Source: Vulcanimicrobiota bacterium
GTDB lineage: Bacteria; Vulcanimicrobiota; Vulcanimicrobiia; Vulcanimicrobiales; Vulcanimicrobiaceae
DNA: 31,250 nt
Direction: 5' to 3'
Assembly: GCA_003135555.1 (NCBI GenBank)
Contig: PLCF01000019.1
Coordinates: forward strand, 1 to 31,250
In this document: positions 12,826-16,960 of the stretch, piece after piece
How the letters are laid out: each line of letters begins with the position of its first letter
Position numbering within the stretch: the first letter of the stretch is position 1
Translations under genes and position numbers: made by a program
Notes under the pieces: generated by a model
Database searches by the model: none
Told to the model about the DNA's origin: nothing
Seen by the model: only the letters and a program-made list of their open reading frames with translations

Positions 12826-13647
12826 CTAGACGGCGGCCGTTCGCAGCTTGAGGATGCGCCGCGCCTCGTCGGGAGTCGCGACCGGACGGCCCAGCTCCGC
12901 CGCGATCCGCGCGACGCGGGCGACGAGCTCGTCGTTGCGCGCCAGCCGGCCTTTCTCGTAGTAGAGGTTGTCCTCGAGGCCGACCCGGACGTGACCGCCC
13001 ATCGCGATCGCCACCATCGCGAGCGGCAGTTGCATGCGCCCGATCCCCGCAACCGACCAGGTGCAGCCGGCGGGGAGCGCGCGCACGCAGTCGACGAGGT
13101 GCTCCACCGAGGCCTCGAGCCCGCCCGGGACGCCGAGCACGAAGTCGACGTGGGCCGGAAGCTCGATCGCGCCCTCTTTGGCCAGCAGCTTCGCGTTGGA
13201 GAGGTGGCCGAGATCGAAGATCTCCAACTCGACGGCGACGTCGTTCGCGCGCATCGCCGCGGCGATCCCGCGCATGATCGGAAAGCTGTTCTCGAAGATG
13301 TCGTCGCCGAAGTTCACCGTGCCGCAGGTGAGCGTCGCCATCTCGGGCCGCAGCGCCAACGGTCCGGCGCGCTGGTGCGGCGTCATCCCGATCGCGCCGC
13401 CGGTCGAGAACTGCACGATGAGGTCGCTCGCGGCGCGGATGGCGTCGTACGCCTGGCGGAAGCGCTCGACGGCGTGCGTGTTGGTCCCGTCGTCGTTGCG
13501 GCAGTGGACGTGCACGATGCTTGCGCCCGCGGCACGGCAGGCGCGCGCCGTCTCCCCGAGCTGCGCCGGCGTGACGGGCAGGTGCGGCGTCTGCTCGGGC
13601 ATGACTTCGGCGCCGACCGGCGCGACGGTGATGATCAGCGGGTCCAC
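12826..13647 (-). CDS. kce: 3-keto-5-aminohexanoate cleavage enzyme (BKACE/DUF849)
   Basis: PLIITVAPVGAE (Glu14), IVHVHCR (Zn HxH), STGGA, PEMATLTCGTVNFG and HVRVGLEDN. Confidence 0.9.
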   Translation of the reverse strand: MDPLIITVAPVGAEVMPEQTPHLPVTPAQLGETARACRAAGASIVHVHCRNDDGTNTHAVERFRQAYDAIRAASDLIVQFSTGGAIGMTPHQRAGPLALRPEMATLTCGTVNFGDDIFENSFPIMRGIAAAMRANDVAVELEIFDLGHLSNAKLLAKEGAIELPAHVDFVLGVPGGLEASVEHLVDCVRALPAGCTWSVAGIGRMQLPLAMVAIAMGGHVRVGLEDNLYYEKGRLARNDELVARVARIAAELGRPVATPDEARRILKLRTAAV

Positions 13648-13696
13648 GACCGGGACGGTTCGCCGGGCAAAACGCGCGTCCCGCGCTTCCCATCCG

Positions 13697-15991
13697 TCAA
13701 CCCTGACAGAAGAAGTCGGGAACCTCCTCCAAGCGTCGGATGAACTCCATCTCGTTGACGTGGATCCGTATCTGCTCGGAAGGCGCCAAACTCGATCGTT
13801 GAAAAATCGACCTTCCTGCGATCGAACTCATGCGCACAATGGCGTCCAGCGACCGCGCCGCGTAGCGATATTTCTCCACGGTCAAGAAAGCGTACACGAG
13901 CCCTGGATCGATGTTTATCTCCTCCACCAAGGCGTCATCGTGCGCGACGACCTGGAACAGATGGGCGCCCGAGTTCTTCAGTTGCGCGCTCAGCAACAGA
14001 GCACGGCGCAGAGCGATCGACGCGTCGATGTCCTCGATGCTGTAATTTGCCGGATGGTCCAGGCTCAAGACATCAACGTGCCCTTTGAGCCTGCTGAGGA
14101 AATCGGGTGCCTTTGCATCGGCTCCGAGCTTCGAGAGTGCTTGTTTCTCGAACTCGGCCATCGAGGAATTCGTGCCCCCCGCGAATACGAAGATCGCCGG
14201 ACCGACCGTGTGGGTAACGGGGCCCTCCTGAAATGTGCCGTCCTGCATTGGGGCCAGAAAATAGCGGAGCCAGCCGAGCCTTGCGTTCAGATTCGAATCG
14301 AACTCGTCCCAGAACACGACCGGCATCGCGCCTGCGACGCCTACGTCTCGAACTTGATGGAGCGCATCGTTAATCGCCTGTGCAGAGGAAAATTGTGACA
14401 GATTGAAGGTCAAGAGTCGGAGCGGTTGATCCTTCGCGACGTGATTCGCGACCTCGGTCACGCCGAAAGACTTGCCGGAGCCGGGCGCGCCGAAAACCGC
14501 GATGGAGAGCGGTTGACGCGTTTGCATCTCATTCTTCGGCATTCGGACGTCGAGGTAATTCTTGAAAAGCGATGCTATGATACTGTACGACTCGATCTCG
14601 GTTCGATCGGTCAGCACCAGCTCGCCGAACTTTCTGAGGGGATAGTCTGTCGTCGGCCCCACATCGGCGACGCCCTTCAATACGATGCGTTTCGCGTGCA
14701 GTAAGATCTCTTTGTAATCGGCGAGCGCTTCTCGCAAGATCTTCCACTTGAGCCTGTCCGTCTTCGCCGGTCTGCCGTCCAACTTCTGCGGGATCGCGCA
14801 ACTTGCGTATCTGATCGCCGTCGGATGCAGAAGCTCGGCGCCCTGATCGAACGACTTGACGATCGTATCCGCGATACTGTCGAGCGGAAAGTGCAGAGTC
14901 GGGACGGACACGTGGTCCCTGATCCTCTCTTTTCCCTCATGCGACGTGTTGGCGAACCCTTCCCGATGAAGCCTCAGCTGTGCCCGGAGCGCGGGGACAA
15001 TCGCCTTACCGAGGACGACAGGATCTCCACAATCGGCATTCCCGGCGTCAAGCATCCGAAGCAATTGCAAGAAGACAGCCGTCGTCAAACAGCGTGTATA
15101 TCCGAACATCGACCCGGGGTACTTCTCGGCCCAGGTCTCGCGGAGTTGGTGCGGATCGTAGTAGAGGTGGCCTTTGTAGTCACGACGCGTACGCGCATAG
15201 ACGGCTGCTCCGGCGCCGTAGAACGACACGACGACGTACGAACAGTCCCCGTACTCTGTCGGCCAGAGCCGGCGCAGTCCCATATCGAGATCCTCGATCG
15301 TGCGCTCCCACGTGAGGCCCCTGCTTATTCGCATCCGCCCGACGCGCAGATCGTCCGCACTGACGATGAGGACTATCCTGTTACCGAAATTTGCCTTGAC
15401 GTGAGCCCACAACGGGGATGGAGCGCCGCCCTCGGGTTTCGGTTTCCACCGCACGACTGCCCACGCGTCGTTGCGCGGAGTGAGAAGCGAAGGGGGCCAG
15501 GCCTCACGCTTTCCGCCGAAGCCGTAGGACGCGTCCTGCACGACCACGACATCGCCGCGAACCCCGTCGTCCCCATCCGCGTCCTCGACCAGTTTTCCGA
15601 GAAGCTCGTCGGGTTGGCGATCACTACCGACTCGGCGATAAACACGCCAGACGATGGCCTTCCCGCTTTGCGATTTCGCTTCGTCGTCTTCAAGCTCGTA
15701 CGGCGTACAGAGCATGTACGTGTGCCAATACGGCGGAGACCCTGGCAGAGTCGCGATCGAATCCATGTTCGGCCTCACGACGTACGCGTCGGCGCCACTG
15801 AGCTCGATCGTCTTTTCAATCAAACGCCCAAGTGCCGACGCGCATCCCTCTTCCGCAGTGCACTGCATGTAATGTCCCGTTTCCGGGCGCGTGCCGGTCG
15901 CGAGCAAGACCGTGCTCTGCGCAAAACGCCATTCGATCAGAATGTCGCCCGCCACGACGATCTTACGCCTTGCACCCGTCACGTTTTGCAC
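13697..15991 (-). CDS. Uncharacterised 764-aa protein: degenerate PfkB-like N-terminal domain plus AAA+ ATPase
   Basis: Walker A GAPGSGKS, Walker B VVFWDEFD, FVFAGGT, PDFLSRL and YAARSL; N-terminal KIVVAGDILIEW; lower GC than the flanks. Confidence 0.8.
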   Translation of the reverse strand: MQNVTGARRKIVVAGDILIEWRFAQSTVLLATGTRPETGHYMQCTAEEGCASALGRLIEKTIELSGADAYVVRPNMDSIATLPGSPPYWHTYMLCTPYELEDDEAKSQSGKAIVWRVYRRVGSDRQPDELLGKLVEDADGDDGVRGDVVVVQDASYGFGGKREAWPPSLLTPRNDAWAVVRWKPKPEGGAPSPLWAHVKANFGNRIVLIVSADDLRVGRMRISRGLTWERTIEDLDMGLRRLWPTEYGDCSYVVVSFYGAGAAVYARTRRDYKGHLYYDPHQLRETWAEKYPGSMFGYTRCLTTAVFLQLLRMLDAGNADCGDPVVLGKAIVPALRAQLRLHREGFANTSHEGKERIRDHVSVPTLHFPLDSIADTIVKSFDQGAELLHPTAIRYASCAIPQKLDGRPAKTDRLKWKILREALADYKEILLHAKRIVLKGVADVGPTTDYPLRKFGELVLTDRTEIESYSIIASLFKNYLDVRMPKNEMQTRQPLSIAVFGAPGSGKSFGVTEVANHVAKDQPLRLLTFNLSQFSSAQAINDALHQVRDVGVAGAMPVVFWDEFDSNLNARLGWLRYFLAPMQDGTFQEGPVTHTVGPAIFVFAGGTNSSMAEFEKQALSKLGADAKAPDFLSRLKGHVDVLSLDHPANYSIEDIDASIALRRALLLSAQLKNSGAHLFQVVAHDDALVEEINIDPGLVYAFLTVEKYRYAARSLDAIVRMSSIAGRSIFQRSSLAPSEQIRIHVNEMEFIRRLEEVPDFFCQG

Positions 15992-16054
15992 CCCGACTCA
16001 GGCAACCGGAAGGAGACTCGCCTCTCCTTTACGAGCTTATGCTCATGCCACCTC

Positions 16055-16960
16055 TTACGCGCGCATCTCGGGGTCGAGCGCGTCGCGCAGGCCGTCGCCG
16101 AGCAGGTTCACGCCCATCACGGCGATCATGATCGCCAGCCCCGGGAAGAGCGCCGTCCACCAGGCGGTGTCGAGATATTGCCGCCCGTCGGCGAGCATTC
16201 CGCCCCATGAGGGCGTCGTCGGCGGAACACCCAAACCCAGAAACGACAGCGACGACTCGAGCACGATCGCGCGCGCGATCTCGAAGGTGCCCAGCACGAT
16301 CGCTGCGCTCGCCACGTTGGGCAAGAGGTGGCGCGCCACGACGCGCCCCGGTGCGGCTCCCGCGGCTTCTGCGGCGACGATGAACTCGCGCTCGCGCAGG
16401 CTCATCGTCTCGGCCCGCACCACGCGCACGTACTGAACCCACGAGGTCAGGCCGATTGCGGCGATCACCGTCCACAGGCCGGGCCCCACGACGGCGACGA
16501 TCGCCACCGCCAGCAGCACCAGCGGAAAGGCCAGCTGCACGTCGGTGATGCGCGCGATCACCGCGTCGACGCGACCGCGACGGTAGCCGGCGACGAGCCC
16601 CGCGGTGACGCCGATCGTGCCGCCGATCGCGACCACGGAGAGGCCGACGATCGCCGAGACGCGCGAGCCCCAGATGATCCGCGCGAGCAGATCGCGGCCG
16701 AGGTTGTCGGTGCCCAGCGGGTGCTCGTGGACGCCGCCGGCGATCCAGGCCGGCGGCAGCAACGTTGCGGTCAGGTTCTGCGCGTTGGGGTCGACCCGCG
16801 CGATCAGCGGCGCGAACAGCGCGCACACCGCGACGACGACGACGATCGCGGCGCCGATCAACGCCGCGGGATCGCGCCGCAAGCGCCGCAGCGAGGCGGT
16901 CCGCGACGTGACCGAGACGACGTCGTCGGGCACGCCCGCCGCGGCAACGGCGGCGGTCAT
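16055..16960 (-). CDS. Peptide/nickel ABC transporter permease (DppC-like)
   Basis: HPLGTDNLGRDLLARIIWGSRVS, REFIVAAEAAG and LLGDGLRDALDP. ATG 16960 overlaps the upstream stop (ATGA). Confidence 0.95.
   Translation of the reverse strand: MTAAVAAAGVPDDVVSVTSRTASLRRLRRDPAALIGAAIVVVVAVCALFAPLIARVDPNAQNLTATLLPPAWIAGGVHEHPLGTDNLGRDLLARIIWGSRVSAIVGLSVVAIGGTIGVTAGLVAGYRRGRVDAVIARITDVQLAFPLVLLAVAIVAVVGPGLWTVIAAIGLTSWVQYVRVVRAETMSLREREFIVAAEAAGAAPGRVVARHLLPNVASAAIVLGTFEIARAIVLESSLSFLGLGVPPTTPSWGGMLADGRQYLDTAWWTALFPGLAIMIAVMGVNLLGDGLRDALDPEMRA

Follow-up and report, generated by a model that had tools for sequence, protein, structure and literature searches.

A predicted non-catalytic ribokinase-fold domain fused to an AAA+ ATPase without pore loop 1, at an insertion hotspot of a Vulcanimicrobiota genus

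What does a single lower-GC gene do between a peptide-transporter gene and kce? The question is raised by a 31,250-nucleotide stretch of a Vulcanimicrobiota bacterium (assembly GCA_003135555.1, contig PLCF01000019.1, positions 1 to 31,250 of the forward strand; hereafter the window), in which one open reading frame (ORF; 13697–15991, minus strand; 764 codons from GTG, no internal stops) encodes a PfkB-like domain, a linker and an AAA+ ATPase without an RyR tail. A preliminary description of the window had proposed a catalytically degenerate kinase joined to a ClpB-like ATPase, acquired horizontally and possibly active against phages. The reading that we favour, held tentatively and a little short of an even chance, is that the protein is a ligand-gated oligomeric switch in which a non-catalytic ribokinase-fold pocket would gate an AAA+ ATPase lacking its pore loop, with a probable accessory role in defence. 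By analogy with its relatives, the gene likely goes back to a TIR/SLOG/RyR nucleotide-signalling cluster whose other members it has lost, and it probably persists alone as an accessory factor in defence.

The N-terminal domain (residues about 8–400; 14792–15970, minus strand) is predicted to have the ribokinase/PfkB fold with lid strands and to be non-catalytic. With an AlphaFold (AF2) model built from 92 sequences (pLDDT 90.9, pTM 0.92), Foldseek placed HldA at all of ranks 1–7 (top match 4e84, E 2e-8), and VIA aligned residues 8–400 of this predicted model with 6whj at Z 19.6 (293 residues, root-mean-square deviation 4.4) and with HldA at Z 17.6. These searches bear out the proposed ribokinase fold, with HldA/HldE nearest; PF00294 was unmatched in the Pfam scan of the query, which reported a weak AAA domain alone. 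The family shares with HldA/HldE and ribokinase/PfkB proteins (4e84, 6whj, PF00294) the fold with its lid, the GDxxxD sugar-pocket motif, the GG switch, a DDAxxGF strand resembling SDYxKG and the same order of all elements. It differs from them in its own LSWE and DPxxxE inserts, in the fusion to an ATPase, and in having GYT(T/S/R) where the kinases have GAGD.

In the ribokinase/PfkB family, the pocket columns considered here bind the sugar, and the Asp of GAGD is the catalytic base. A profile-profile alignment with 28 PfkB proteins paired DTxGAGD with GxMxGYTx at a probability of 13% (E 0.002), a register that leans on the fold too, and placed G297-Y-T-R300 (15092–15103, minus strand) against the kinase anion hole G-A-G-D with R300 at the place of the catalytic Asp. 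The suspected loss of this motif extends to nearly all homologues, only 1 of 149 having Asp in the residue-300 column; the position of the NxxE motif reads (T/S)xxD. The sugar-pocket columns are kept, with D16 in 142, D/E20 in 136, G49 in 131 and G50 in 136 of the 149, and R116, R216, E229, D279 and E284 are further near-invariant polar residues of the domain. A conserved linker (residues 412–481; 14549–14758, minus strand), which in the model and the alignment consists of a WxIL helix, a hairpin and a DRxEIE helix, joins the two domains. Some RyR-less copies (L024 6307–9063, L222 3687–6386, P0084, P0088 and P0089) have variable interdomain insertions of up to about 180 residues.

The C-terminal part (residues about 453–757; 13721–14635, minus strand) is, by model, fold searches and alignment, an AAA+ module with a pre-sensor-1 hairpin and with pore loop 1 deleted. 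On the minus strand it contains Walker A GAPGSGKS (14468–14491; K507 in 149/149), Walker B VVFWDE (14303–14320; D562 and E563 in 149/149), the arginine finger R634 aligned to Clp PEFLNR (14090–14092; 149/149) and the sensor 2 residue R713 aligned to the arginine of Clp GARPL (13853–13855; 148/149). A helical lid is also present, and the sensor-1 Asn position reads AGG(T). The PF00004 match scored 22.9 bits against a cut-off of 21.2. With a separate model of the ATPase (pLDDT 88.8), the top Foldseek matches were Skd3, ClpC1 and ClpB, whereas VIA gave sigma-54 activators Z 15.8–14.5, a tie with ClpA at 14.9. The earlier likeness to nucleotide-binding domain 2 (NBD2) of ClpB therefore stands for the motif order, which ClpA/ClpB/ClpC NBD2 and Skd3 share (Walker A, FNLSQF~IDMSEY, Walker B, MQDG hairpin, PDFLSR, ARS), but by fold it is not specific to ClpB; on these models, the ATPase belongs to the pre-sensor-1 hairpin group and is not uniquely ClpB-like.

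In an alignment against 30 Clp NBD2 sequences, PDFLSR paired with PEFLNR and ARS with GARPL, and GAPPGYVG fell opposite a gap. From FNLSQ/IDMSE (N530) to Walker B (D562), 147 of 149 sequences of the family have a spacing of 32 and 30 of 30 Clp NBD2 one of 44; in the family, the pore-loop region is 12 residues shorter and devoid of the GYVG aromatic loop. The family differs from ClpA/ClpB/ClpC NBD2 in this missing loop, in the replaced sensor-1 Asn and in its single AAA+ module, and the query gene was not among the matches when its own genome was searched with PF07724. Because the substrate pore loop is absent, the term "remodeller", used earlier in the unfoldase sense, is doubtful, and a ClpB-type unfoldase role is unlikely; the module is instead predicted to form a ring without threading polypeptides. 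The sigma-54 activators FleQ, NtrC and FlrC gave the best VIA scores for the ATPase and likewise carry a sensor domain ahead of the AAA+ module. However, neither GAFTGA, the motif of sigma-54 activators, nor a C-terminal helix-turn-helix (HTH) was found in the translation or model of the query, and Pfam Sigma54 was unmatched.

Searches of sequence databases revealed a large family: clustered at 50% identity, it counts 1,762 representatives with E<1e-30, and many database matches are 30–51% identical over 96–99% of the query, covering both the PfkB-like and the AAA+ parts. The hosts span many bacterial phyla and include one archaeal record and one Fusarium protein (P0078, 1,080 aa), which has the ATPase part in common with the family. 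The RyR domain (PF02026) is carried by 63 of 77 matches of the homologue search, and a custom RyR profile found it in 80 of 147 representatives. As first noted, the query has no C-terminal RyR, and none was found in its own genome or in the 41-sequence clade to which it belongs. This RyR-less clade (support 0.87; an inner group of 39, support 0.96) was obtained from a tree of 322 ATPase domains, and its 41 proteins, roughly 35 of them database entries, retain the ATPase motifs; RyR-less tips are also scattered outside it, and some database proteins are possibly cut at contig ends. No family match was found in annotated phages, viral contigs yielded 4 loci (1 near full length) and plasmids 3 records (none >80% coverage), so that, in these collections, carriage by mobile elements is uncommon. 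One member (L135 5227–8178) has ParB, ArdC and DNA methylase genes in its vicinity on an IMG/VR contig. A PDB sequence search with the single protein gave nothing significant, and one with the family profile matched RyR repeats or generic AAA proteins alone. The literature searched contained no description of the PfkB-AAA(-RyR) architecture, and the searchable text of PMC8195603, PMC9503650 and PMC7159879 does not mention RyR or ribokinase domains. That the protein represents a new variant, of predicted function, within the nucleotide-sensing NTPase conflict proteins is well supported.

At 80 GTDB loci of the family, from whose neighbourhoods 189 proteins were picked for a Pfam run, the neighbours include TIR_2, DUF4062-STAND-TPR/WD40, TrkA_N-RyR, SLATT and free RyR genes. 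A recurrent neighbour of ~190 aa contains the motifs GxTGHR, AxGAD, WDG and GGT, which we take to be those of SLOG, a label meant as a lead; its Atlas feature match to YpsA SLOG (0.89) is likewise a lead only, Pfam gave none at 1e-4, and a PDB sequence search with the SLOG-like alignment returned 0 matches. This gene also occurs fused to SLATT (matches in L046 and L070) and to the ATPase. Where a SLOG-like gene is a neighbour, its frame lies <=300 bp away in 55 of 62 loci, measured between stop-to-stop frames, and it is fused in 4 loci. SLOG-like, TIR, DUF4062 or SLATT genes were found near 42 of the 80 GTDB loci, from which the partner profiles were seeded, and near 58 of 80 metagenome loci, which were held out, as against 60 of 2,453 14-kb windows of the own genome (2.4%). 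At L040 (8704–10770), a RelA/SpoT-TPR gene directly follows the family member, with WD40/NACHT-type genes upstream. A 2015 paper on nucleotide-centric systems may bear on the SLOG/SLATT/TIR context.

According to PMC13232231, phage RyR-domain proteins bind or cleave TIR-made cyclic ADP-ribose, and RyR domains bind signals of the ADP-ribose (ADPR) type; the RyR/TIR/SLOG cluster may thus be read coherently, by analogy, as nucleotide-signal immunity. The RyR-bearing relatives resemble Thoeris/TIR/SLOG systems and RyR-domain proteins (RyDEP) in sharing operons with TIR, SLOG-like, SLATT, DUF4062-STAND and TrkA_N-RyR genes, whereas the query lacks any RyR, TIR or SLOG part and any partner beside it. 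The main text of a Thoeris survey (10.64898/2025.12.03.692087) does not mention AAA, RyR, PfkB or TrkA, and its supplementary tables may list such operons. A weak profile match over the Walker region relates the query to IetAS/IteA, a defence system with an AAA-type ATPase, from which it differs in score (16 bits against a cut-off of 510), in the lack of a protease partner and in its architecture.

In the window, the gene lies between a dppC-type permease gene upstream (16055–16960, minus strand; BPD_transp_1/OppC_N) and kce downstream (BKACE; 12826–13647, minus strand; NCBIfam KCE 379 bits against a cut-off of 382), the latter being the conserved flank. Comparison with the empty site of the congener G007 defined the insert: in G007 the octamer GACGGATG directly follows the dppC stop, and in the window it stands at the far end of the insert, where the TGA of the gene overlaps it (right junction, 13691–13699, minus strand). 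The insert extends from 13699 to 16054, and no integrase, transposase or flanking repeat was noticed within it. Contigs of runs X5 and X6 connect position 13648 on the kce side to 16055 on the dppC side.

The family was found in 8 of 44 congeners, a tally that, like all those on 44 genomes, includes the unpublished G264, on which no other claim rests; elsewhere in the phylum, 1 of 368 genomes has it. The frame is open in 7 of the 8 carriers; G010 has a broken fragment with 2 in-frame TAG codons. In 6 of the 8, the gene lies in the mutS-ggt-dpp-kce region, in various gaps and in one orientation, that of kce. It occupies the dppC-kce gap in the genome studied here (G000), in G265 and at locus L148, the ggt-kce gap in G269, the mutS-ggt gap in G014 and the ggt-SBP gap in G209; in G231 it precedes kce, its other side being outside the available contig, and in G008 it lies outside the region beside suf genes. 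Directly upstream of kce, 32 loci (31 congeners and L148) have dppC in 7, ggt in 6, a MutS-like gene in 1, a member of the PfkB-AAA family in 5 (four congeners and L148) and other DNA in 13.

The carriers are scattered on the kce tree, and the copies in the region are only 35–55% identical to each other. G209 and L148 are 96% alike in the kce region with family copies 44% identical, and G014 and G265 are 90% alike there with copies 39% identical. Approximately unbiased (AU) tests, made on a quick tree with groups chosen after the first tree was seen, rejected grouping the copies of either sister pair (p 1e-24 and 1e-47); for the three dppC-kce copies the AU test has little force, as it includes P-numbered sequences without assigned hosts. 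The copies have G+C contents at third codon positions (GC3) of 0.49–0.84, compared with 0.93–0.96 for kce, and the nearest placed relative of the query is the G008 copy (56%), from a different site. Because the copies are discordant with the host tree and sister hosts hold distant copies, several gains or exchanges are indicated, and from these sequence comparisons the genus has likely gained RyR-less copies repeatedly at one chromosomal region; ancient duplication with differential loss is a less likely origin. Horizontal gain, as first proposed, is thus borne out by patchy carriers, discordant copies and the empty site in G007, but the picture of a one-off insert does not hold, as divergent family members lie in the same region of six congeners.

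The slot upstream of kce also receives other DNA. In G211 and G263, a low-GC four-gene cassette (HTH, adenine methyltransferase, an unknown protein and a DndB/DpdB-like protein; L266 943–3965 and L267 983–3937) lies directly upstream of kce, once after ggt and once after dppC. Other inserts are a DUF2442 gene (G013), a TonB receptor/aldolase pair (G031) and many unnamed ORFs. A protein of 720–790 aa with no Pfam match is encoded upstream of kce in the related genomes G010 and G016 (L014 3573–5933 and L030 3474–5627; 72% identical), and inserts of 1.2–2.0 kb with no Pfam or PADLOC match lie between dppC and kce in G087, G048, G272, G240, G018 and G005 (L268–L271, L015 and L016). A 1,449-aa ORF of L074 was ruled out as a true extension, its first half being antisense to ggt.

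On these grounds, we propose that the switch would work as follows. The alignment shows that the pocket residues D16, D/E20 and G49-G50 are conserved and that the catalytic base is lost; the pocket may bind, but would not phosphorylate, a ribose-phosphate, heptose-phosphate or ADP-ribose-like metabolite, and the conserved linker would relay closure of the lid. As the arginine finger and sensor 2 are invariant, the ATPase is expected to assemble as a ring and hydrolyse ATP. As the pore loop is missing, the output would be surface remodelling of a bound partner or a drain on ATP, rather than polypeptide threading. In trees and synteny, RyR-less copies appear to have been gained several times in one region while missing from most congeners searched, which is the pattern of an accessory conflict gene. 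A more specific version, which we consider unlikely though worth stating, is a single-gene immune switch of a new class: a ribokinase/HldA-derived pseudokinase receptor for an infection-linked metabolite of the ADP-ribose or heptose-phosphate type would gate a pore-less AAA+ ring. In most bacteria this protein would sit at the core of an undescribed TIR/SLOG/RyR/ion-channel system and set its threshold, and in this genus it would act alone in RyR-less form, swapped at the hotspot.

Several observations weigh against the favoured switch and its defence role. The profile-profile probabilities are low (13–21%), the registers resting on them plus the fold, and the query itself has Cys50 in place of the second Gly of the GG switch, the only case among the 149. 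The control for the partner genes comes from one genome and is not taxon-matched. Counting all seven partner types, partners occur at 3 of 25 Bacillota loci and 0 of 4 Chlorobiota loci, compared with 42 of 51 others, and RyR-bearing members stand alone at 22 of 25 Bacillota loci (L075–L115) and 4 of 4 Chlorobiota loci; as these copies are mostly without partners, the family is not always in conflict clusters. The partner families are absent at all six loci with DNA of the RyR-less clade (L023, L024, L032, L033, L074 and L148), and the query, adjoined by dppC and kce, has neither an RyR domain nor a partner gene beside it. The query reaches the cut-off of no PADLOC or NCBIfam defence model (IetA/IteA E 0.026 and 0.004), and in most of the other inserts in the slot no defence domain could be recognised. 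The neighbourhood that would fit the suggested conflict or anti-phage role belongs to the RyR-bearing relatives and not to the clade of the query.

Other explanations account for part of these data. A metabolite-sensing regulator, in which the dead kinase would sense a metabolite of the pathway and the ATPase would tune Kce or the peptide transporter, would suit the position and shared direction of the gene in the mutS-ggt-dpp-kce region of 6 of the 8 carriers, including the five loci directly upstream of kce. No sigma-70-like promoter was found in 13500–16300, which makes read-through from the dpp genes plausible. We nevertheless consider such a regulator unlikely, since the gene is missing from 36 of 44 congeners though kce is present in 39 of 44, the G008 copy, its closest relative (56%), adjoins suf genes, unrelated inserts use the same slot, and no link to kce appeared among the scanned neighbours at GTDB loci of other phyla. 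The gene could also be a detached part of an RyR/TIR/SLOG system that works in trans with distant TIR and SLOG genes of its own genome, which has 6 TIR_2 matches and two SLOG-like clusters, C11 (SLOG-like/CHASE2-TIR/TPR) and C52 (SLOG-like/patatin/TPR-S). In the first, the conflict-type cluster L219 (1981–8187), a SLOG-like gene with a SLATT-like tail overlaps the CHASE2-TIR frame and is followed by TPR and papain-family genes; in the second, L220 (6319–10938), SLOG-like, patatin and MAP3K_TRAF_bd/TPR-S genes stand consecutively. This seems improbable, as SLOG-like genes occur in 3 of 8 carriers versus 9 of 36 non-carriers and RyR in 0 of 8 carriers (1 of 44 congeners), with no enrichment of either alongside the family in these incomplete genomes (G000 84%).

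A stand-alone disaggregase or unfoldase of the ClpB/Skd3 type, whose N-terminal domain would choose substrates, is quite improbable: the family-wide deletion of the aromatic pore loop (32 versus 44), the AGG(T) at the sensor-1 Asn place and the equal or higher VIA scores of sigma-54 activators stand against the Foldseek matches to Skd3, ClpC1 and ClpB and the pairing of PDFLSR with PEFLNR and of ARS with GARPL. Absence from most congeners searched, the G010 fragment with its 2 in-frame TAG codons and long branches are what a decaying or neutral passenger would leave once its RyR tail and operon had been lost. The ATPase motifs retained by the 41-protein RyR-less clade, the open frames in 7 of 8 carriers and a pN of 0.30 versus a pS of 0.69 for the query compared with the G008 copy, indicative of purifying selection, make this very improbable. 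Finally, the near invariance of R116, R216, E229, D279 and E284 might reflect an active kinase with another catalytic base, or with the AAA+ site as phosphate donor; as 148 of 149 homologues have other residues at the anion hole and the catalytic Asp, and (T/S)xxD stands in place of NxxE, we regard this as highly improbable.

The gene itself is securely assembled and somewhat unusual in composition. A 2,607-bp contig of run X3, from a second sample of the same study, covers 13492–16098 with 0 differences, so that neither the gene nor its two junctions are an assembly artefact. Its GC is 59.3% versus 67.9% for the genome (2.7th percentile among 1,596 long ORFs), and its GC3 is less extreme (0.73 versus a median of 0.87; 13th percentile in the same comparison), in keeping with the lower GC reported in the preliminary description, whose hand counts (26/60, 35/60 and 47/60) were exact. 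The motifs quoted there are all in the translation, both N-terminal (IVVAGDILIE, EGCASAL, VVVVQD, IVSADDLR, VVVSFYGAGA and GSMFGYTRCL) and in the ATPase (GAPGSGKS, VVFWDEFD, FVFAGGT, PDFLSRL and YAARSLDAIV); LSGGQ is absent, as stated, and domain matches agree on the co-oriented neighbours dppC and kce. The likelier start is probably the GTG at 15982, giving 761 aa, because GGGGTG lies 6 nt ahead and homologues begin a few residues before VVxGD. Downstream of the dppC stop (16010–16054, minus strand) are a GAGG, a five-codon frame (16046–16029) and then, ahead of the gene, a perfect 7-bp hairpin AAGGAGA/TCTCCTT (16029–16010, minus strand); the 5' leader folds no better than shuffles (z −0.53).

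The family numbers thousands of proteins in many phyla and is without description in the literature searched. In its dead-kinase pocket, nucleotides or sugar-phosphates would have a receptor of a new kind. The family also connects the RyR domain, lately recognised as binding ADPR, with TIR/SLOG operons. The other unnamed inserts of the hotspot are candidates for new defence genes. The RyR-less, partner-less form would be the simplest test case, with one gene, point-mutant controls at K507, E563, R634 and D16, and natural empty-site relatives.

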